From Escherichia coli (GTDB lineage: Bacteria; Pseudomonadota; Gammaproteobacteria; Enterobacterales; Enterobacteriaceae): a stretch of 64,000 nucleotides of DNA. How positions within the stretch are numbered: the stretch's first letter is position 1; every line of letters begins with the position of its first letter. Below are positions 5,315-50,629 of this stretch, piece by piece. The notes below the pieces were generated by a model, which saw only the letters and a program-made list of their open reading frames with translations, did no database searches and was not told where the DNA came from. The DNA lies in NCBI RefSeq assembly GCF_051903065.1, contig NZ_CP178438.1, one strand, 5' to 3'. A program made the position numbers and the translations under genes.

Positions 5315-6073
5315 TCAATTCTGCAAAACCGATGACACCAGCAGCTGTGTATACGGATGATGCGGGTCGTCGAGCACGCGGTCGGTTAACCCACTCTCCA
5401 CCACTTGCCCCTGCTTCATCACCAGCAAACGGTCCGCCAGCAGGCGGGCGACGCCTAAATCGTGGGTGACAATCACCACCGCGAGGTTCAGCTCCACCAC
5501 CAGGCCGCGCAGCAGGTCGAGCAGGCGCGCCTGCACCGACACATCCAGCCCGCCGGTTGGCTCGTCCATAAATACCAGCTTCGGATGCGTCACCAGGTTG
5601 CGGGCAATCTGCAAACGCTGCTGCATGCCGCCGGAAAAGGTGGTCGGCAGGTCGTCGATCCGGTTGGCGGGAATTTCCACCTCTTCCAGCCACTTCTGCG
5701 CGGTGGCGCGAATATCGCCGTAATGACGTGCCCCGGTCGCCATCAGCCGCTCGCCGATATTGCCGCCTGCCGACACCTGGCGGCGCAGGCCGTCGAGCGG
5801 ATGCTGATGCACCACGCCCCATTCGGTGCGCAGCAGGCGACGGCGGTCGGCCTCGCTCATGCCATAGAGGGAACGGTTTTCATAGTGAATCTCCCCCTGC
5901 TGCGGCGTCAGACGCGCGGAAATTGATTTCAGCAGCGTGGTCTTCCCGGAGCCGGATTCCCCGACAATGCCCAGCACTTCCCCCGGCCATAAATCAAAAG
6001 AGACATCGCTAAAGCCTTTGCCCGGCGCGTAAAGGTGGGTCAGGTTATTGACCGAAAGTAACGGTTGATTCAT
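5315..6073 (-). CDS. phnK: C-P lyase ATP-binding subunit PhnK
   Basis: 252 aa from [11 protein letters not shown]; ABC ATPase motifs ([17 protein letters not shown]); start overlaps phnJ stop. Confidence 0.92.
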
Positions 6074-39368: not shown

Positions 39369-39641
39369 ATGGAAATACGCGAAGGCCACAATAAATTTTA
39401 CATTAATGACGAACAAGGCAAGCAAATCGCTGAAATTGTCTTTGTGCCGACCGGAGAGAATTTAGCGATTATCGAACATACCGATGTCGATGAAAGCCTG
39501 AAAGGGCAAGGGATTGGTAAACAGCTGGTTGCGAAAGTCGTGGAAAAAATGCGTCGGGAAAAACGAAAAATTATCCCATTATGTCCATTTGCGAAACACG
39601 AATTTGATAAAACGCGGGAGTATGATGATATTCGCAGTTGA
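39369..39641 (+). CDS. yjdJ: GNAT-like small acetyltransferase YjdJ
   Basis: 90 aa; GQGIGKQLV acetyl-CoA binding motif. Confidence 0.8.
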
Positions 39642-39867
39642 TGGAAGAGTACAGATTCACGATATTTTTCATGCTCTCCGCGGAGTGATGCAGGAGAGCA
39701 TCTGAAGGGTAGGGGGATGCACAAAGAATGGGCAGAGAGAGCGTTTTTTTGTCCCAAGTCATCCCCTTTACTGAGCAAAAAAAAGAATATCTCCTATATG
39801 AGAATCATCAATCGGGGTTAATAAGTTTTGCGTCCCCAGAGCGTTTAATATTGATAGGAGTCATATT

Positions 39868-40164
39868 ATGGAAGGTAAAAACAAGTTCAATACTTATGTT
39901 GTTTCTTTTGATTATCCATCATCTTATTCCTCAGTGTTCTTAAGGTTAAGATCATTGATGTATGATATGAATTTCTCCTCTATCGTGGCTGATGAATATG
40001 GGATACCACGACAATTGAATGAAAACTCCTTCGCAATAACGACATCATTAGCCGCAAGTGAAATCGAAGATTTAATCAGGCTTAAATGCTTAGACTTACC
40101 GGATATTGATTTTGACCTCAACATTATGAAAGTTGATGACTATTTCCGTCAGTTTTACAAATAG
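39868..40164 (+). CDS. ghoS: Type V antitoxin GhoS (endoribonuclease specific for ghoT mRNA)
   Basis: 98 aa, MEGKNKFNTYVVSFDYPSSYSSVFLRL; immediately upstream of ghoT. Confidence 0.88.
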   Translation: MEGKNKFNTYVVSFDYPSSYSSVFLRLRSLMYDMNFSSIVADEYGIPRQLNENSFAITTSLAASEIEDLIRLKCLDLPDIDFDLNIMKVDDYFRQFYK

Positions 40165-40191
40165 CCAGGAAGGATAAGAAGAACATAAAAA

Positions 40192-40365
40192 ATGGCACTA
40201 TTCTCTAAAATATTAATTTTTTATGTGATTGGTGTGAACATATCCTTTGTCATTATCTGGTTTATCTCACATGAGAAAACACATATTCGTTTACTTAGTG
40301 CATTCCTGGTAGGAATAACCTGGCCAATGAGTCTGCCTGTGGCATTACTTTTTTCTCTCTTTTAG
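40192..40365 (+). CDS. ghoT: Small membrane-lytic toxin GhoT (57 aa)
   Basis: MALFSKILIFYVIGVNISFVIIWFISHEKTHIRLLSAFLVGITWPMSLPVALLFSLF; two hydrophobic helices; below the ORF-track cutoff. Confidence 0.85.
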   Translation: MALFSKILIFYVIGVNISFVIIWFISHEKTHIRLLSAFLVGITWPMSLPVALLFSLF

Positions 40366-40440
40366 GAGCTGTAGTTGAGTGGACCCGCTGGTTATCGTGA
40401 AACGAAGCGTCTCTCCTCAAAACTGGATTTGCGGAACGAT

Positions 40441-40483: not shown

Positions 40484-42001
40484 TTATTTCTGTGGGCGCA
40501 TCGCCGGGAAGAGAATAACGTCGCGAATAGTATGACTGTTTGTAAACAGCATAATCATTCGGTCTATACCAATACCCAGACCAGCGGTTGGCGGCAGACC
40601 ATATTCCAGCGCAGTCACGTAATCTTCGTCATAGAACATGGCTTCGTCGTCACCTGCAGCTTTAGCGTTAACCTGTTCCTGGAAACGTTCAGCCTGATCT
40701 TCTGCGTCGTTTAATTCGCTAAAACCATTACCGATTTCACGACCACCGATGAAGAATTCAAAACGGTCGGTGATTTCCGGGTTAACATCATTACGGCGCG
40801 CCAGCGGTGACACTTCTGCCGGATATTCCGTAATAAAGGTTGGCTGAATCAGATGTGCTTCTGCCACTTCATCAAAGATCTCCGTGACAATACGTCCCAG
40901 CCCCCAGCTTTTCTCTACCGTAATTCCGATAGATTCAGCTAATGCTTTAGCAGCATCAAAATTATCCAGGTCGGCCATATCGGTTTCTGGACGATATTTT
41001 TTGATTGCTTCGCGCATGGTGAGTTTTTCAAACGGTTTGCCGAAATCAAACACATGCTCGCCATAAGTGACTTTAGTGGTACCCAGAACCTCTTGTGCCA
41101 GGGTGCGGAACAGTGACTCTGTCAGTTCAATCAAATCGTGGTAATCCGCATACGCCATGTAGAGTTCCATCATTGTGAACTCAGGATTATGGCGAACAGA
41201 AATACCTTCATTACGGAAGTTACGGTTGATTTCGAATACCCGTTCAAAACCGCCTACAACCAGACGTTTCAGATACAGCTCCGGCGCGATACGCAGATAC
41301 ATATCTAAATCCAGAGCATTATGATGGGTAATAAACGGGCGAGCAGATGCCCCACCTGGAATTACCTGCATCATCGGGGTTTCTACTTCCATAAAGCCGC
41401 GCGCGACCATGAACTGACGGATAGCGGCCAGAATTTTTGAACGGACAACAAACGTTTGACGGGATTTATCGTTAGCGATGAGGTCCAGATAACGTTGACG
41501 ATAACGGACTTCCTGATCCTGCAGACCATGGAATTTATCTGGTAAAGGACGTAGTGCTTTTGTCAGCAGGCGCAACTCAGTACAGTGAATGGAAAGCTCA
41601 CCCGTTTGCGTCTTAAACAGCGTACCGCGGGCACCGATAATGTCACCCAGATCCCATTTTTTAAACTGATCGTTATAAACACCTTCTGGCAGGCTATCTC
41701 GTGCGACGTACAGTTGAATACGGCCACCGACATCCTGCAACGTTACAAAGGAGGCTTTCCCCATGATACGACGGGTCATCATTCGGCCAGCAACCGAGAC
41801 TTCAATGTTTAAGGATTCCAGTTCCTGGTTATCCTTCGCATCAAACTCTTCGTGCAACTGGTCAGAGGTATGGTCGCGGCGAAAATCATTGGGAAACGCC
41901 ACACCTTGCTGACGTAGTGCCGCCAGTTTTTCGCGGCGATTTCTCAGTTCATCGTTAAAATCAATAGCCTCATTGGCTCCCCGTGTTTCTTGTTCAGACA
42001 T
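40484..42001 (-). CDS. lysU: Lysine--tRNA ligase, inducible form LysU
   Basis: 505 aa from [30 protein letters not shown]; class II aaRS motifs; track ORF begins at an upstream TTG. Confidence 0.92.
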
Positions 42002-42237
42002 TTTGGTTCCTCTAAATCCAGCTTTCAATTTAGCGTAGATAAAGAGACAGATCGGTACACTGTATTATCTGCCTCGACTATTAGTAACTCAGTTTATCTT
42101 ATCGAAACTAACGCTTACCTCAAGTTGATATCACTAATAAATAACCATCAAAATGGTTTAAATGACTTATTAATATCGATTTTCTAGTGTTATAAACTGA
42201 AAGTTAATTTATTCATAACTAATTGTTTTTACGACAG

Positions 42238-43695
42238 TTAATCGTTGCTCTCCTGTATCATATTCGTCGGCGTGCTAAACAGGAAACGGGTAGCAAAGGC
42301 CAATACGACGATGATCGCGACACAAGCCAACGTCCACTCTCCCATCTGAGAAAAGAATCGCTGGTAAGCTGCAATTGCCATACCGCTAATTTGCGACTCT
42401 GTCGTCTGCTGTGCTACTACGCCTGCCAGCCAGTTGGCGACCGCGCCTGTTGCCAGCATATAAATCCCGGTTAATACGCCAGACATTTTCAGACGCGTGA
42501 TTTGCGCAATCGCCACCGGGTCAATAAAGAGTTCGGCAAAGCCCATTAGCGCCAGCCCGGATACCATCACGCCCATTGACGCTTGACCGTCAGCTGCTGC
42601 ATGTCGGGCATCAAATGCCAGCAACATAAAGCCACAAGCCATCAGCAGTAAGCCAAAGGCAAACTTCAGCCAGACGCGCAATGTTGAGTTGCCGTGGCTT
42701 TCTGGCGACGCCAGCCAGGCCAGAACAACCCCAGCGAGCATCACCGCAATTGCATTCACCGACTGGAATAGTGCTGTAGGTACTTCAATATTGAATGCCT
42801 GACGATTCACAAAGCGATCGATAAACAAGCTGATGGTACTGCCGCCCTGTTGTGCCAGTACCCAGAACAATGTCCCGACAAACATCAACAATACAATTTG
42901 CCAAAGAGCACGGCGGTGTTCGGGGAATTTGATCATCATGCGGGCAATGATTTGTGCGGCAATGAGGCAAACGATCGCCAGCAAATATCCGGACCAGTCG
43001 TTCTCCAGCAGCAGGGTAAAAAATACTGGGGCTAAACAGAGCATCACCACTAACCAGCTCCATACCGGTAAGGCAAATTTGACGCTAGTGAGCGCTTTTT
43101 TATCCATACTACGCGTGGACTGGAAATGACGATGACCGCTTAAGAAAATCAACAAACCGATAAACATGCCGCCACCCGCAAGGGCAAAGCCAACATGCCA
43201 TCCATACCACTGAGCAGCCAGGCCGCAGGCGATTGGGGCGGCGATAGAACCGATATTGCCCGCAGCATACAGCAGCGAAAAACCGCCATCACGTCGATGA
43301 TCGTTCTCGTCGTAGAGCTCGCCAAGCAAACAGCTGATGTTTGATTTGAATAAACCGTAGCCACAAATAATGATTGCCAGCGCCAGATACAGGCTAAAGG
43401 TTGAATTTGTATCAATGCCCAGCACCACATGGCCAAGGGTCATTAACAGCGCGCCGGCAATCACTGCAGTGCGGTTGCCGAGCAGGCGGTCGGCAAGCCA
43501 GCCGCCGAGAATAGGGGTAACGTAAACCAGAGAAGCATATGCGCTGAACAGGCTGATGGCATGGTTATCATCAAAACCAAGCTGATGGGTGAGATAGAGA
43601 ATGAGTAAGGCACGCATGCCGTAAAAACTGAAGTACTCCCAGATTTGGATCGCCACGATATAGTATATCGCGCGCGGCTGTGAGGGTGTTTTCAT
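42238..43695 (-). CDS. dtpC: Dipeptide/tripeptide:H+ symporter DtpC (YjdL), POT family
   Basis: 485 aa. Confidence 0.9.
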
Positions 43696-43711
43696 GTGTT
43701 CTCCTTATGAG

Positions 43712-43740
43712 CAAAAAAGGGAAGTGGCAAGCCACTTCCC
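43712..43740 (-). terminator. Intrinsic terminator of the cadBA operon
   Basis: Hairpin gggaagtggcaagccacttccc followed on the minus strand by six T, just downstream of the cadA stop. Confidence 0.7.
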
Positions 43741-43753
43741 TTGTACGAGCTAA

Positions 43754-45901
43754 TTATTTTTTGCTTTCTTCTTTCAATACCTTAACGGTATAGCGGCCAT
43801 CAGCCTGACGGTATGCACCGTGAATATCGGTTTCAAAGCCCGGATAGTGAGCGCCGATTTCACACAGCATCTGCAGGAACTCCAGAACCGGGCGGCTTTC
43901 TTCGGTGATCATTTCACCCGGCATTACCAGAGGAACTCCCGGCGGATATGGAAGGATCATATTGGCGTTAATACGACCTACCATTTCGTCGAGGTAAACT
44001 TCTTCGGTCATACCGTGCAGCTCTTTCTGGAACGCAGCATACGGAGTCATTACCATTGTCGGCAGCACTTCAAATGCGCGATACATCAGATCCGGCAGAT
44101 TGTGGTGAACAATCAGTTTGTGGATATTCTGAGCCAGTTCCTGAATACGCATGTTTTCATAGAATTCAGGATCTTCACGATACAGAGACGGCAGCATGTT
44201 TTTCACACGCAGGTTCAGGTCGAACGCACGTTTGAAGTCAGTCAGAGCACGCAGCAGGCTCAGTGCTTTGGTCTTATCGATACCGATGCTGAACAGGAAC
44301 AGCAGGTTATACGGACCGGTTTTCTCAACAACGATGCCATGTTCGTCGAGGTATTTCGCCACGATGCTGGCCGGAATACCAAAGTCGCTCATGGTGCCGT
44401 CTTTTTCCATCCCCGGAGTCAGCAGGGTGACTTTGATCGGGTCAAGATACATGTGCTCGTTATCGATGTTTTTGAAGCCGTGCCAGGTGCTGTCAGAACG
44501 CAGCGGCCAGCATTCAGTCGTATCGATATGATCCGGCTGCCATACATCAAAGAACCAGCCATCAGATTCCGTTCTCAGACGTTTGATCTCTTTACGGAAT
44601 TTGATCGCACGTTCAATGGAACCGTTGATCAGACGCTTACCAGCATTACCTTTCATCATCGCCGCAGCGGTTTCAGTGGACGCCACGATACCGTAGTGCG
44701 GAGAAGTGGTGGTGTGCATCATGTAGGCTTCGTTAAAGGTTTCTTCGTTTACGTCACCTTTAACGTGGATCATGGAAGCCTGAGAGAACGCCGCCAGCAG
44801 TTTGTGAGTAGACTGGGTTTCGTAAATCACTTTCCCTTCTACACGGCCACCGCTCATACCGCATTTACCTTCGTAAATCGGTGAGAAGTTGGTGTAAGGC
44901 ACCCACGCGGAGTCAAAGTGGATGGATTTCACATCCAGTGTTTTCTTGATGAAGTCGGTGTTGTACAGCAGACCATCATAGGTAGAGTTGGTAATTACAG
45001 CATGTACCGGCCAGGTTGCGTTTGGTGTTTCTTTCACGCGCTTAGCAATGGTAGCGTGCTGGAATTCACTCTGTGGGATACCACCAAGAATACCGTAAGC
45101 GTTACGGGTCGGGCGGAAATAGATTGGCGTAACATCGCTCATCATCATCAGGTGGGTCAGCGATTTATGGCAGTTACGGTCAATCAGAATGGTGCTGCCT
45201 GCCGGAGCAGAGTACATACCAACAATTTTGTTCGCAGTGGAAGTACCGTTGGTCACCATGTAGCTGCGGTCTGCGTTAAAGACGCGAGCGATATACTGTT
45301 CTGCTTCTTTGTGTGGACCACTGTGATCCAGCAGAGAACCCAGTTCAGATACTGAAATGGAAATATCAGATTTCATGGTATTCGGACCAAAGAAATCATA
45401 GAACAGGCTACCTACCGGGCTTTTCTGGAATGCAGTACCGCCCATGTGACCAGGAGTACAGAAAGTATATTTACCTTCACGAACATATTTAAACAGTGCT
45501 TTAGTCAGCGGAGGCAGAATAGTGTTGATATATTCGTCAGTGGTCTGCTTGATCTTGTTAGCAATATCTTCAGCAGCACCTAGCGCATATTCAAAGAAGC
45601 TAATCTGTAAACGCAGGTCATTCAGGCTTACATCGAGAGTGGAATACGTATTAGCGAACGCGTACAACGGCAGGTTCTCGTTCATTTTGCTAATTTCTTC
45701 GCACAGCTCGAGATTATATTTATCCCAGTCAAAAATAACGCCGCACAGACGCGCATTGTTTTCGATCAGTTTTAATAAGTCGTCACGGTCGTTCGGGTAA
45801 ACAATCTGGAAGTTCAGACGTTCAAGCGCGCGATGAAGTTCACGGATGGGTTCTTCTTTAAAATAAACCCCCATGTGATTCAATATTGCAATAACGTTCA
45901 T
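43754..45901 (-). CDS. cadA: Inducible lysine decarboxylase CadA
   Basis: 715 aa from MNVIAILNHMGVYFKEEP; paralogous in sequence to AdiA at 25537-27804. Confidence 0.93.
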   Translation of the reverse strand: MNVIAILNHMGVYFKEEPIRELHRALERLNFQIVYPNDRDDLLKLIENNARLCGVIFDWDKYNLELCEEISKMNENLPLYAFANTYSTLDVSLNDLRLQISFFEYALGAAEDIANKIKQTTDEYINTILPPLTKALFKYVREGKYTFCTPGHMGGTAFQKSPVGSLFYDFFGPNTMKSDISISVSELGSLLDHSGPHKEAEQYIARVFNADRSYMVTNGTSTANKIVGMYSAPAGSTILIDRNCHKSLTHLMMMSDVTPIYFRPTRNAYGILGGIPQSEFQHATIAKRVKETPNATWPVHAVITNSTYDGLLYNTDFIKKTLDVKSIHFDSAWVPYTNFSPIYEGKCGMSGGRVEGKVIYETQSTHKLLAAFSQASMIHVKGDVNEETFNEAYMMHTTTSPHYGIVASTETAAAMMKGNAGKRLINGSIERAIKFRKEIKRLRTESDGWFFDVWQPDHIDTTECWPLRSDSTWHGFKNIDNEHMYLDPIKVTLLTPGMEKDGTMSDFGIPASIVAKYLDEHGIVVEKTGPYNLLFLFSIGIDKTKALSLLRALTDFKRAFDLNLRVKNMLPSLYREDPEFYENMRIQELAQNIHKLIVHHNLPDLMYRAFEVLPTMVMTPYAAFQKELHGMTEEVYLDEMVGRINANMILPYPPGVPLVMPGEMITEESRPVLEFLQMLCEIGAHYPGFETDIHGAYRQADGRYTVKVLKEESKK

Positions 45902-45980
45902 AGTCATATCTCCAGGTAAAAAAGGCCCCTCCCAACACATGGGACAAAATGAAAGGAGGAGCCTCGGAAAATACTTTTAA

Positions 45981-47315
45981 TTAATGTGCGTTAGACGCGG
46001 TGTGGTTATCCATTGAGTGGCTCTGGCGCTCGTGCATTTTGCGAGCATAGAACATCAGGATAATCAGGCTGACGATGAAGGTACCTGCCAGCTCGAAGGA
46101 GCTTGCGCCCATCAGCGCGATGAAGCAGAACACGCAACCCAGTACAGAGCAGATCAGGCTGACAAAGTTGCGGATGTTAACGCCTTCAAAACGAATCAGG
46201 TCAACGCAAGAGTAGAAGTACGGCAGCATAGTCAGCAGTACTGCGATACCGGTCAGTTCACCGAACAGGTCAGATGCTTTACCACCGGCAGAGTTCATCA
46301 GAGTGATGAGGATCATCAGGGCAGTCATTTTCACTGCAGCCAGCAGCAGACCTTTTTTCGGAATACCGTTGCTGTCGACTTCACCATAAACTTTCGGGAA
46401 GTTACCGTCGTTAGCGGCACGTACACCTGCCTGGCCTACCAACATCATCCAGGAGCCCAGAGAAGTCAGGCACGCAAAGGCGGTGAATGCAGAAACCAGC
46501 GGCGCAGCCCAGTTACCGAGGATAGTTGAAGCACTGATTGCAAACGGAGCACCGGAGGCCGCCATTACAGAAGACGGATACATACCGGAAAGCACCTGAG
46601 TCGCAGCGATATAAACAATACCTGCTAAACCAGTACCCAGCATGGTTGCCAGCGGAACGGTACGTTTCGGGTTTTTAACCATACCAGTACTTACAGCTGC
46701 GGATTCAACACCCACGAAGGCCCACAGGCAGAGCAGAATACTTTTAATGATCGCATGACCATCAGTGGTATCCGCAGTATTCCAGTTAGCTGCATAAGTT
46801 GCCGCATCAAACCAATGCCAGCCAACAATAGCAGTCATCACCACAGGAATAAGAACCAGCACCAGACCAATAGTGGTTAAACGGCTTACCCAGGTACCGC
46901 CGAGCATATTTACAAAGGTAAATACCCAGACGATAGCAATACAGGCGATACCCGCCGGAACAGGATCATTTAATACTGGGAAGAAGGTGGAAAGATAAGA
47001 TACAGCGGTAATACCAATCGCCAGGTTACCAATCCAGTTAGCATGGTAATAAAGAACACCTGTCTGAAAACCAAATGCAGGAGAAATTTCTCCGGCATAA
47101 GCAATTGGGCCACCTTGTTGCGGGTTTTTTGTTGCCAGTCGGGCATATACATACGCCAGCGACATTGCACCAATAATAGAGATAATCCAACCCCAGATAG
47201 CAATACCACCGATACTTGCTAGGTTCGCAGGTAATAATGCAATACCGCTCCCCATCATATTACCGGCAACAACACCGGTACAGGCAAATAGCCCGATCTT
47301 CTTGGCAGAACTCAT
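45981..47315 (-). CDS. cadB: Lysine:cadaverine antiporter CadB
   Basis: 444 aa APC-family transporter, paralogous to AdiC. Confidence 0.93.
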   Translation of the reverse strand: MSSAKKIGLFACTGVVAGNMMGSGIALLPANLASIGGIAIWGWIISIIGAMSLAYVYARLATKNPQQGGPIAYAGEISPAFGFQTGVLYYHANWIGNLAIGITAVSYLSTFFPVLNDPVPAGIACIAIVWVFTFVNMLGGTWVSRLTTIGLVLVLIPVVMTAIVGWHWFDAATYAANWNTADTTDGHAIIKSILLCLWAFVGVESAAVSTGMVKNPKRTVPLATMLGTGLAGIVYIAATQVLSGMYPSSVMAASGAPFAISASTILGNWAAPLVSAFTAFACLTSLGSWMMLVGQAGVRAANDGNFPKVYGEVDSNGIPKKGLLLAAVKMTALMILITLMNSAGGKASDLFGELTGIAVLLTMLPYFYSCVDLIRFEGVNIRNFVSLICSVLGCVFCFIALMGASSFELAGTFIVSLIILMFYARKMHERQSHSMDNHTASNAH

Positions 47316-47680
47316 GCTCTTCTCCTAATTTCATTTTTGAATTTGGAGTCCGGGTCATGATGTATAACTATTTCCTGACCAGACCAAACTGGCGCTAAGA
47401 TTACTCACGAAAAAAGGATTAATCCTAAAGATTAGGTGAAATAACACAAAAGTTTCTGTAAGTGAGAACTTGAGGTTTTTTATTAACACATCAGGATCGC
47501 AAGTTGATATCATGAAAAGATAAACATTCAATGTTTACAATAGATTGCGTGACGTCTTCTGGTTAAATTTATGTAATAAAAATTATGCGGCAAATAAATT
47601 GCCGCAACATATTATACCAACAGGAACATACAAAAACTCAACAACAAATATTCCCGAGCATGAATCAACCCGGGGGTTAC
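47316..47680 (-). promoter_or_regulatory. cadBA promoter / CadC operator region
   Basis: AT-rich 365-bp gap between the cadC stop and cadB start; individual sites not resolved. Confidence 0.5.
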
Positions 47681-49219
47681 TTATTCTGAAGCGAGAAATT
47701 TGTCGAGATAAGGTACAACATAAGGAACAGAAGTCTGGAATATACCATTTTCAATCCAGTAAAGGGTGTTTGCCCCTGGGCGTAAATTAAAGGCGGTGAG
47801 ATATGCATCAGCCGCTTCCCGGTTCATCCCCTTCATTTCATAAACCTTGCCAAGCAATACATAATTTAGCCAGGACATTTCAAGATCAATGCCAGTATTT
47901 ATCGCCTGGTAAGACTCATCTGTTTTACCTTTTACCAGAGCACTGATCGCTTTTATTTGATATATAATGGACAGGTTATTCAATTCCGGTAGTGTAACAA
48001 TGTTATCTATTTCTGTGTTCAGTGCTGCTAATTGTTTTTCATCTAAAGGATGTTGAGAATAGCGCACGATATCAACTAATGCTTTTTCTGCTCTCGCGTA
48101 GGTAAATTCTGGGGATGATTGAACAATCTCACCTAATAATTCACTGGCACGGTTCAATGATTTATCATCGCCATGCAGTAAATAATCATGTGCCTGATAA
48201 AAATTAGTTAATAACGCACCACGATGAGGCAAAATTTGCTGGAGCGTCTCCTGCATTCGTTGTGGCCACGGTTGGTTTAACGCTTTTGATAAACTCTCCA
48301 GTAAATCATTTTGAATCGCCAGCTGATTACCGTTAGTGATGACATAACGTTTATCCAGCATGGTTGAACCATCTGCATTGTCTACCAATTTTATCGACAT
48401 AAAGCATTGTTGAGCACGGTATTGGCGCTGATTAACAAACGCAATAGATAATGTTTTACCGGAACTGCTCGGTTCATCAATGTTGTAGTTGATTTTGTCA
48501 TGCACCATAAAGGTGGAGAAGGTGTTAAGTGATGTCGCCACCAAATCACCCACGCCTATCGCGTAAGAGAGCTGATACGGGGAACTCCAGCTGTTACAAC
48601 TTTTATTTACCATATTAATGTCAATATCGCGTGGATTGAGCAAAATACGCGATTTGCTCATCGGAAGACGTGTATCAAGACTTGAAAACGCTACCAGTGC
48701 TACACAGATACCTAAGGACAACAGGAAAAAAAACCATACCCAAAAGGTAGTGAATCGTTTGCTTTTAACTGGGGATTGTTCAGGTGGCGTTGCAGTGTTT
48801 TGAATGTTAAGACTGTGGGAGGGAGAATCTGTGGCAGGAACCGCCTCTGGTATAGGGGGAGGCGAAGATAGCATTATTTCCTCTCCCTCTTCTTCGCTGT
48901 ACCAGATAACCGGCACCATTAATTTATAGCCGCGCTTTGGTACAGTAGCGATATAGACAGGACTATCTTCATCATTATCTTTTAATGACTTACGTAGTTC
49001 TGAGATACTCTGCGTCACAACGTGATTGGTGACAATACTTCTCTTCCAGACATTATCGATAAGTTCATCCCTGCTAAGTACTTCGCCACTGTGTTGAGCA
49101 AAGAAAACCAGAAGGTCGATTAATCTCGGCTCAAGGGTAAGTTGACGCCCATTGCGGCTAATTTGGTTTATGGACGGAGTAACAAGCCATTCGCCAACGC
49201 GAACTACAGGTTGTTGCAT
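47681..49219 (-). CDS. cadC: ToxR-like membrane-bound transcriptional activator CadC
   Basis: 512 aa; N-terminal winged HTH, one membrane helix (FWVWFFFLLSLGICVALVAF), periplasmic sensor domain. Confidence 0.92.
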   Translation of the reverse strand: MQQPVVRVGEWLVTPSINQISRNGRQLTLEPRLIDLLVFFAQHSGEVLSRDELIDNVWKRSIVTNHVVTQSISELRKSLKDNDEDSPVYIATVPKRGYKLMVPVIWYSEEEGEEIMLSSPPPIPEAVPATDSPSHSLNIQNTATPPEQSPVKSKRFTTFWVWFFFLLSLGICVALVAFSSLDTRLPMSKSRILLNPRDIDINMVNKSCNSWSSPYQLSYAIGVGDLVATSLNTFSTFMVHDKINYNIDEPSSSGKTLSIAFVNQRQYRAQQCFMSIKLVDNADGSTMLDKRYVITNGNQLAIQNDLLESLSKALNQPWPQRMQETLQQILPHRGALLTNFYQAHDYLLHGDDKSLNRASELLGEIVQSSPEFTYARAEKALVDIVRYSQHPLDEKQLAALNTEIDNIVTLPELNNLSIIYQIKAISALVKGKTDESYQAINTGIDLEMSWLNYVLLGKVYEMKGMNREAADAYLTAFNLRPGANTLYWIENGIFQTSVPYVVPYLDKFLASE

Positions 49220-49794
49220 AATAGAAACTCATTCGAAAAGGGAATGATGCAATGATAATTGCCACAACCTATTTTTACCATCTATAGATGGGTTTATTTA
49301 CATATTATTGGTGAATGCAAGACGTTATTTTTACCAGCCATAAACTTCTTGATTACATGGTATTAAGAAAGGATTTTACTGAGAACCAGAAGTAATATTC
49401 CTTACCATCAAAATTCATCATCTTTGCCAAAGAAAAATGTTCAGAAAATAATCCATGGAAAATTGTCCGGAGCGCTTACTATTTTAATGGATTGTTAGTC
49501 TTTGCATGAGCAAGCGGACTGATACATTTCTCTTTGTTCTCATTCAGAAAATCTCATCAGTCGCCGTTCAGACCGGTGTTGTGCTTTATGGATGCGTTAC
49601 GCTCCTGATGACGTCATTTGACGTTCAACAGCATCACGGGGTCGCACGACATTTCACGTCAGTTAGTGCTATCGCTCAGGAACAAATTTTCCCGAATTGG
49701 GATATGCCCGCAAATTGCTGGTGATGTGGGGAGAATCTGGTTGAGTTCGGTAGAATTGATTTGGCGGCAGAACGCTTAAATCGTGGCGTCCTGA

Positions 49795-49828
49795 AACGAA
49801 AAACGGACCTCCGTGGAGGTCCGTTTAT
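49795..49828 (-). terminator. Intrinsic terminator downstream of pheU
   Basis: Hairpin aaacggacctccgtggaggtccgttt with U-rich tail on the minus strand. Confidence 0.65.
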
Positions 49829-49835
49829 ATGAATT

Positions 49836-49911
49836 TGGTGCCCGGACTCGGAATCGAACCAAGGACACGGGGATTTTCAATCCCCTGCTCTACCGACTGA
49901 GCTATCCGGGC
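49836..49911 (-). tRNA. pheU: tRNA-Phe (anticodon GAA)
   Basis: Minus strand reads GCCCGGATAGCTCAGTCGGTAGAGCAGGGGATTGAAAATCCCCGTGTCCTTGGTTCGATTCCGAGTCCGGGCACCA, 76 nt with encoded CCA. Confidence 0.97.
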
Positions 49912-50017
49912 AACGGGGCGCATTAAACCGTAATCTGCACATCTCGTCAACCTAATTTCAGTAAAAGCGATTCAACTGCTTAAGATTGCGGCAAATCGCT
50001 TCTTTTCTGTGTTTCTG

Positions 50018-50593
50018 TCAGGTCAATGCGCCACCCTGGCGGCAGCGGGCGAAGCGCAGGATATCTTCCGCCAGCCGATGTGCAGTGTCGACATCCGCCT
50101 GGCTACGATTCACCAGCATTCGGCTTAAACAGCCTTCCAGCACCAGTTCCATCTGCTTTGCTACCATCGCCGGATCGTCAACTTCCAGCGTGGTTAACAG
50201 TTCGTGGGTGAAATCGTAGGCCGCGCTTTTTTGCTGATCGGCTAGTTGATGAATAGGGTGGCCAGGATCGGGATAAAACGTACAGGCAGCGATAAATAGA
50301 CAGCCCGGATAGCGGTTGTTTTTAACGCACTCCGATAACGCCTGATAACGTGCCAGCAGCTTTTGTTCGGCGGTTTGCGTTTCGTCCAGCATCAGCTGAC
50401 GACGCCAGACATCTATCTGTTGGCTAAGATAACGCAGCGCATCGTAGAGGATTGCCTCTTTGTCTGGCCAGAAGCGGCGCAGCTCGTCCAGTGGATAATC
50501 CACACGTTCAGCAACCATCTCCAGCGTGGTGTTGGCAATCCCTTGTAATTCTAATAATTTCAGGGCTTCTCCCAGTACATCTTCACGTTGCAC
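50018..50593 (-). CDS. yjdC: TetR-family transcriptional regulator YjdC
   Basis: 191 aa if started at the GTG giving (M)[30 protein letters not shown]; N-terminal TetR HTH; start uncertain. Confidence 0.8.
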
Positions 50594-50629
50594 GCTATTT
50601 TCCTCCGTCTTTCCCACTGCAAGTGTCGT

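Follow-up and report, generated by a model that had tools for sequence, protein, structure and literature searches.

When an element integrates at a tRNA gene, the 3' end of that gene is rebuilt, and all sequence distal to it is element DNA. Decayed P4-type integrases exist beside tRNA genes of Escherichia coli K-12, such as intB at leuX in KpLE2, and in cases of this type the integrase has been inactivated next to its tRNA attachment site, locking in the remains of the element. The intB-type cases keep recognisable cargo and boundaries, whereas no right boundary is detectable at the relic beside the tRNA gene pheU that is described in this article.

A piece of this relic already carries a name. 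Within the spacer between cadC and pheU, K-12 is annotated with the pseudogene yjdQ (b4654; K-12 4362191..4362353, minus strand), which is presumably what EcoGene and EcoCyc describe as a P4-like integrase remnant; the K-12 record shown holds no product text, and no paper on yjdQ was found in the searchable literature. The feature is thus already known as a K-12 pseudogene and is an ordinary annotated genomic fossil. The relic and yjdQ of E. coli K-12 MG1655 are the same feature, with the difference that the annotation covers a 163-bp C-terminal piece, whereas the relic extends over ~470 bp, from the tRNA to about position 49367 of the DNA analysed here. The present work adds the full extent of the relic (leader, start codon, deletion junction and 3' flank), its probable age within the genus, and the apparent island derivation of the pheU terminator.

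An intact counterpart, the pheV/pheU integrase (WP_001218852), is represented by the paralogous pheV locus of isolate L2_E1649 (L006), which was reached by a distant DNA search and served as the reference for the alignments. It resembles the relic in position, orientation, leader and terminator beside tRNA-Phe; compared with it, the relic is without codons ~8-357, which comprise the arm-binding and core-binding domains together with the greater part of the catalytic domain.

The study followed up a reading of the DNA from its letters alone (hereafter the sequence-only reading), in which Phe-tRNA genes had been called classic sites of island insertion. The literature on pheU agrees, with yjdC-pheU-cadC being a standard PAI/LEE site (PMC7686366; bioRxiv 10.1101/549998), and with the islands of pheU and pheV having one common integrase type (PMC7686366). 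In the tandem arrays that PAIs and LEE form at pheU/pheV, modern islands are inserted between the tRNA and the relic, with a repeat of 22-23 nt from the tRNA end as their boundary, whereas the DNA analysed here has nothing inserted next to the tRNA and retains the oldest layer alone.

Layout of the locus

The window, that is, the whole stretch of E. coli DNA that was analysed (64 kb, contig NZ_CP178438.1), contains the region cadBA-cadC / pheU / dicD (yjdC) / dsbD. A single tRNA, tRNA-Phe(GAA), was found by ARAGORN, with its 3' end pointing into the cadC-pheU spacer (49220-49835, 616 bp), and the corresponding K-12 interval is equal in length and 98.9% identical. An Rfam scan of 48800-50300 (E<=1) returned the tRNA alone, plus two chance eukaryotic matches. 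The tRNA-Phe gene, cadC, the 616-bp spacer, the terminator hairpin and a 72-aa open reading frame (ORF) all lie where the sequence-only reading had put them, and it was also right that no island is present from the tRNA to cadC. The features are as follows.

50018..50617, minus strand: dicD ORF (ORF list)
49836..49911, minus strand: tRNA-Phe(GAA), pheU (ARAGORN; Rfam tRNA 68.3 bits)
49836-49858: attB core used by pheU/pheV islands, the 3'-terminal ~23 nt of the tRNA
49790..49835, minus strand: tRNA trailer and predicted rho-independent terminator, island-type (terminator scan and fold)
49679..49835, minus strand: leader from the tRNA to the integrase start (putative attL-side island arm and one-time integrase promoter region)
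49652..49679, minus strand: integrase ribosome-binding region, start codon and first ~7 codons (MALTDAK; local alignment)
49641..49651, minus strand: junction of the ~1.05-kb internal deletion (alignment to the intact gene)
49479..49640, minus strand: last 63 codons and stop of a P4-type integrase, degenerate; K-12 yjdQ (b4654)
49506..49724, plus strand: 72-aa ORF, probably spurious, antisense to the integrase relic
49367..49478, minus strand: 3' flank of the integrase gene (putative island backbone)
49286..49366, strand not assigned: 81 bp confined to the Escherichia lineages that carry the relic
49220..49285, minus strand: cadC-proximal 66 nt that travel with the cad block
47681..49219, minus strand: cadC, 512 aa (ORF list)

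Anatomy and family of the integrase relic

At the pheV locus, the intact 420-aa integrase begins 197 nt past the 3' end of an identical tRNA-Phe. The pheU tRNA together with the 157 nt downstream (49835..49679) aligns with the pheV tRNA and leader at 89% over 245 columns (E 3e-94), and the leader by itself is 91% identical to the pheV leader at aligned positions. Local alignment brings out the start region of the integrase, which reads CTGAGCGATAGCACTAACTGACGTGAAA in the window and CTGAACTATGGCACTGACTGACGCAAAA in the intact pheV gene; the matching stretch is 49679..49652, where the window has CGATAGCACTAACTGACG against CTATGGCACTGACTGACG in the intact gene. The start codon has changed from ATG to ATA at 49672..49670, and the ATG is kept in E. 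whittamii, Escherichia sp. E1V33 and strain SCPM-O-B-8794 (hereafter E1V33 and SCPM).

Positions ~294-1345 of the intact gene are unmatched in the window, which corresponds to a deletion of ~1,050 nt, or roughly codons 8-357. The 3' piece that follows (49640..49479) aligns with the intact gene by blastn (E 1e-35) with 85% nucleotide identity at aligned positions, and tblastn recovers it in two frames, RDAVERQMTSSGA*RIHKAQHRSERRLM / DFLNENKEKCISPLAHAKTNNPLK, covering residues 359-391 and 397-420 of the intact pheV integrase. This piece has been damaged by two deletions, of 16 and 14 nt, by the insertion of 1 nt and by an in-frame stop, and in E. coli and E1V33 the 16-nt deletion has removed the GVRAAY codons with the RAAY tyrosine motif. 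The match to the pheV island extends ~112 nt beyond the integrase stop (49478..49367).

As judged from these alignments, what remains in about three quarters of the spacer (~470 of its 616 bp) is the left end of an ancient P4-type island in collapsed form. The sequence-only reading had reported no integrase here, a statement that does not survive: the 5' and 3' ends of the gene, its leader and its 3' flank align across that length, and yjdQ is annotated within it. The same reading had allowed that a spacer with no similarity to any integrase or att sequence would speak against an old integration, and the similarity to an integrase is clear.

With regard to the family, the intact L006 integrase contains Arm-DNA-bind_3, Phage_int_M and Phage_integrase domains and aligns with phage P4 Int over 97% of its length at 54.9% identity; the designation P4-type rests on this test of the intact parent gene, not of the relic itself. 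The relic is homologous to P4-family integrases through its alignments to the pheV integrase. Of the three-domain architecture, ~7 N-terminal and 63 C-terminal codons are left, and the catalytic tyrosine motif RAAYIH is gone. The placement is adjacent to the tRNA and in the same orientation, with the relic start codon 164 nt from the tRNA 3' end against 197 nt in the intact locus, a difference due to leader deletions in the relic. Since codons ~8-357 and the tyrosine motif are lost and the start codon is mutated, the relic is a pseudogene incapable of encoding a recombinase. Pfam scans of the translated relic fragments and of a repaired, ancestor-like peptide gave no match, because the fragments are too short and degenerate, and at the protein level it is pairwise alignment to close relatives that argues for the relic.

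The integrase remnant is also recognised by automatic annotation, as PGAP places a 'tyrosine-type recombinase/integrase; frameshifted; missing N-terminus' at 49479..49638 (minus strand) in all E. coli records inspected, close to the K-12 yjdQ interval, which corresponds to window 49476..49638. At least 80% of the spacer is present in 5,218 of the 5,426 complete E. coli genomes, and among the matches listed for these genomes, most rows likewise carry a PGAP integrase pseudogene.

Trailer and terminator of pheU

Directly after the tRNA lies a hairpin with a stem at 49826..49801 (minus strand) of 11 bp followed by a T-run, with a folding energy of -19.4 kcal/mol and z = -3.9 (terminator scan and fold). 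Loci of other genera without this hairpin number 56, including Enterobacter, Kosakonia, Citrobacter, Klebsiella and S. enterica diarizonae, and have a different trailer, mostly of one type conserved in both sequence and hairpin (CTATTTAAAGAACCCAGCC..GGCTGGGTTTTT / CTATTTAAAGAACCCAGCC..GGCTGGGTTTTTGCTTTT). The trailer of the window, AATTCATAT.AACGGACCTCC-ACGG-GGAGGTCCGTTTTT, is confined to loci with a P4-type integrase (L010, L012, L054, L066, L083 and L086, the last with a 55-codon remnant), to the Escherichia relic loci and to L014.

Because island-free loci of other genera bear a different, native trailer, the pheU terminator is read as probable island DNA and not as the native trailer of the tRNA, and an island-type trailer fits the established mechanism of integration. 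It follows from this mechanism that the native trailer should sit at the far end of the old element. A native-type trailer or terminator, which would mark the ancient attR, was sought in the 64-kb window, and chance matches of 13-18 nt were all that was found.

Several other loci show trailers of note. At L014 (C. amalonaticus), the island-type trailer hairpin is present and no integrase was detected, and at L086 (R. planticola), the hairpin is accompanied by ~55 N-terminal integrase codons; independent integrase relics seem to exist at tRNA-Phe in other genera too. In E. coli 14EC047 (L002), a 45-bp copy of the island-type trailer (6001-6045, equivalent to window 49791-49835) is located between the right end of an island (DUF4942) and a very large TcdA/TcdB-type glycosyltransferase gene, and looks like a seam of tandem islands. 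The tRNA-Phe of E. coli E69 (L011, CP089930.1) has a third kind of trailer (AAATTTATAACCCTCGCTCCGGCGGGGG...), and neither cad genes nor the relic occur in the 9.8 kb downstream of it.

Distribution and decay within Escherichia

A DicD scan with one genome per species yielded 80 loci. The full mosaic with an identical large-deletion junction is present in E. whittamii (L007), E1V33 (L008) and SCPM (L009), the last of which, titled E. coli, is a divergent lineage whose CadC is 91.6% identical; the junction is common to five Escherichia sequences, K-12 among them. E. coli and E1V33 have lost 23 nt of the leader and the 16 nt with the tyrosine motif, as well as 10 nt close to the junction, SCPM has lost 28 nt at another place, and E. 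whittamii is missing 13 nt from the 3' flank. Because the junction is common to E. coli, E. whittamii, E1V33 and SCPM, the large deletion probably arose once, ahead of the split of these lineages. In E. albertii (L012), a similar leader is followed by ~40 degenerate N-terminal codons and then by unrelated DNA, with the contig stopping after 680 nt, and given this different remnant, one event for the whole genus is not established. The 81 bp at 49286..49366 are 83-94% conserved among the Escherichia lineages with the relic and matched neither the pheV island nor the sequence ahead of cadC in E. fergusonii, Raoultella or Trabulsiella.

The four-fold sites of cadC, with identities of 84.0% (E1V33), 82.5% (E. 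whittamii) and 79.2% (SCPM), were used as a neutral yardstick for the spacer. The relic segments show 63-94% identity between lineages and numerous indels, and the 3' flank (49367..49478) has a near-neutral substitution level together with indels across Escherichia. The trailer and terminator (46 nt) are 93.5-97.8% identical across Escherichia, and the cadC-proximal 66 nt are 97% identical in each of three Escherichia comparisons. By this measure, the relic appears to be decaying at a roughly neutral rate and to encode nothing, with visible constraint in the 46 nt of the terminator and the 66 nt before cadC only; both of these segments may well be functional.

The cadC upstream region and the cad block

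The 66 nt upstream of cadC are 90% identical to those of E. fergusonii, where homology ends 66 nt before the ATG, and in Raoultella the identity is 76% over ~55 nt, where homology ends as well; in both organisms cadC sits in other neighbourhoods. The segment 49220-49285 probably holds the cadC core promoter and 5' UTR. A mapped transcription start of cadC was not found in the searchable literature, where the papers retrieved on the cadC promoter deal with biosensors or plasmids.

Among the loci compared, cadC directly follows this tRNA in Escherichia only, and its place after the tRNA is taken by yjdF and/or proP in Enterobacter, Kosakonia and Phytobacter. The genes cadC-cadB-cadA-dtpC-lysU (window 40484-49285) are conserved as a unit at four further loci (L087, L088, L089 and L090). 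The contexts of the block vary, with dgcT and pgaA as neighbours in E. fergusonii, a location elsewhere in Raoultella and an arrangement without lysU in Trabulsiella, and at none of these loci is it beside tRNA-Phe. In the window, the block's own upstream sequence starts ~80 bp after the homology to the integrase 3' flank stops, and cadC is AT-rich (GC 0.37-0.44).

The acid-stress unit cadC-cadB-cadA-dtpC-lysU could have come to this locus in the ancestor of Escherichia as cargo carried by the old P4-type island of pheU, to be fixed when the integrase underwent its internal deletion. This proposal is tentative and, on balance, rather unlikely: neither a right end nor a displaced native trailer was found in the 64-kb window, and the layout would be explained equally if a deletion had joined the relic to native DNA that was already there. 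A search of the literature on cadBA in connection with horizontal transfer, lysU and tRNA found nothing.

Other variation around the block was observed. The GC content falls to 0.36-0.39 at 39500-40400, between lysU and dcuS, in what we take to be the ghoST / yjdJ / yjdI area of K-12; this would be a candidate for an old element boundary, and no att trace was found in it. In E. coli TOK-001 (L003, 1519-4057), IS1 stands in place of cadC, cadB and the 5' end of cadA, and the spacer match begins at query position 203, apparently a case in which the cad regulator and antiporter have been lost in association with an IS. On the other side of the tRNA, E. whittamii (L007, 10644..12659) has a 671-aa ORF between dicD and tRNA-Phe, with no counterpart in the E. 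coli gap of ~106 bp; extra DNA between dicD and the tRNA is also present in E1V33 (L008) and amounts to ~1.5 kb in many Enterobacter and Kosakonia loci.

The relic DNA may further have been co-opted as regulatory sequence of cadC, which would be an addition to its origin as a fossil and not an alternative to it. As only 66 nt upstream travel with cadC in other genera, any control from further upstream in E. coli would have to work through relic DNA, and genomic SELEX has given a weak (4.0-fold) in-vitro peak of RpoH holoenzyme in the cadC<pheU spacer, at the old K-12 v2 coordinate 4360430 (PMC5493296), which by our own conversion corresponds to about window 49692, in the old integrase leader. 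The relic segments, however, evolve near the neutral rate and gain indels, a consensus scan found no minus-strand promoter, and the RpoH peak is weak and was obtained in vitro only, so that we regard such co-option as improbable.

Present use of the pheU site

A second copy of the tRNA 3' end was found neither in the spacer nor in the 64-kb window (<=3 mismatches in 25 nt; <=6 in 23 nt). The distal direct repeat of a tRNA-linked island is accordingly absent within the window, as the sequence-only reading had stated, and the search for a duplicated 3' tRNA fragment in the spacer, which it had proposed, came back empty. Of 5,426 complete E. coli genomes, 3,786 (~70%) match without a break a query that runs from the dicD side across the tRNA into the spacer, a slight overcount, as at least one occupied genome clears the 80% threshold. 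Among the matches listed, most of the non-contiguous genomes stop at query position 559, that is, at the end of the spacer plus the 23-nt tRNA-end repeat.

Strain 33F4 illustrates the occupied state. Its spacer is 100% identical to that of the window and is followed by a 22-nt copy of the tRNA 3' end (TGGTGCC-GGACTCGGAATCGAA), beyond which lies an island of >100 kb; more than 99 kb of its DNA were traced toward the tRNA without reaching it. The content of this island includes DUF4942, CbtA/YeeU, Ag43, iol genes and many IS elements, and when 49 kb of it were compared with the window by blastn, no match was obtained outside the spacer. In the loci of other genera, a positive control for a repeat followed by a native trailer was uninformative, the 10-kb flanks being shorter than the islands. 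Because the 33F4 repeat and island adjoin the spacer, the attB is intact, and modern islands enter on the tRNA side of the relic, forming a tandem with it.

A virgin attB would have native sequence straight after the tRNA and no mobile element before the conserved flanking gene. In the window, the tRNA itself is intact and the island-type hairpin follows it directly, and no mobile element lies before the flanking gene. The term 'empty site', as first applied to this locus, thus holds in that no modern island is present and fails in that the site is not pristine, the integrase pseudogene and the island-type trailer and terminator being in place. The comparison with island-bearing strains recommended at that stage gave a similarly divided answer, with the 33F4 island between the tRNA and the spacer and the relic present there too.

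Origin of the spacer

Taken together, it is very probable that the spacer is the fossil of a P4-type island that integrated at pheU and was later internally deleted and decayed. In an ancestor that E. coli shares with its sister lineages in Escherichia, an island with a P4-type integrase would have entered the 3' end of the tRNA-Phe gene pheU, rebuilding the tRNA 3' end and bringing its own downstream sequence, including the terminator that would now serve pheU. One internal deletion of ~1.05 kb would then have taken nearly all of the integrase gene, leaving on one side the leader and the start codon with 7 codons and on the other the final 63 codons and ~110 bp of the 3' flank, and the rest of the element may have been lost or turned into fixed chromosome. 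Since then, the relic would have decayed and the tRNA 3' end would have remained a working attB. A single ancestral integration and this order of events are what we infer from the shared anatomy. It is the left end, and that end only, that points to integration at pheU, and the ancient right boundary may have been deleted or may lie outside the 64-kb window.

The relic might instead have been copied to pheU from the pheV paralogue, or from an incoming island, through homologous recombination or gene conversion. The two tRNA genes are identical in sequence and their islands share an integrase type, and the leader is as similar to modern pheV (91%) as to the orthologous Escherichia leaders (86-91%), which would fit occasional exchange. 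Such copying is nevertheless very unlikely as the source of the relic: the junction and the 3' flank are common to divergent Escherichia lineages at one locus, the integrase 3' remnant is merely 85% identical to the modern gene, and conversion would need to copy a gene that was already deleted. The idea that repeated gene conversion kept the leader 'fresher' than the integrase remnant was also considered and dropped, the gap-free identities being similar (91% and 85%).

A further reading takes the 72-aa plus-strand ORF for a real small-protein gene that arose de novo on the relic. It is unbroken in E. coli, K-12 included, and in E1V33, and a sigma-70-like site (TTGCCA-17-AATAAT, 10 of 12) lies upstream at 49424-49452 (plus strand), pointing to the tRNA and antisense to the relic. 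Promoter-like sites, however, are not above the level of shuffled sequences (1 found against a mean of 1.7), no obvious Shine-Dalgarno sequence is seen by eye ahead of the ATG, and K-12 annotation is without the ORF. Outside E. coli and E1V33, the frame is not intact: in E. whittamii and SCPM, a length change that is not a multiple of 3, frameshifts and stops interrupt it, and by the conserved-frame standard for small-protein genes it fails. The ORF overlaps, in antisense, the integrase 3' codons, the deletion junction, the integrase 5' end and part of the leader, and is most plausibly an accident of the antisense strand, not a gene, the probability that it encodes a protein being slight. Its lack of recognisable features, remarked upon in the sequence-only reading, is confirmed by the absence of any Pfam match and is explained by this antisense position; the further suggestion of an ancient integration remnant was sound for the spacer, which holds one, and misplaced for the ORF, which lies on the opposite strand.

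A pristine, never-occupied attB, that is, native intergenic DNA with a terminator and a chance ORF, would agree with the lack of an intact integrase, direct repeat or island between the tRNA and cadC and with the relic-only layout as the majority configuration of E. coli, and is practically untenable given the alignments, in which both ends of the integrase gene are present together with the leader and the 3' flank, the pseudogene annotations in K-12 and by PGAP, and the missing native trailer of other genera.

Implications

If the spacer is the fossil of a P4-type island, the practical consequences are modest and concern mainly the use of yjdC-pheU-cadC as the "empty site" reference for PAI/LEE typing. 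The DNA downstream of the tRNA would itself be old island, ~90% identical to modern left arms, and this similarity may mislead boundary calls, PCR or assembly logic. For the cell, pheU would rely on a terminator supplied by a mobile element, and the cad block would own only 66 nt upstream of cadC, which limits where a native promoter can lie. Should the cargo reading of the cad block prove true, a textbook acid-resistance system would be an example of a domesticated island.
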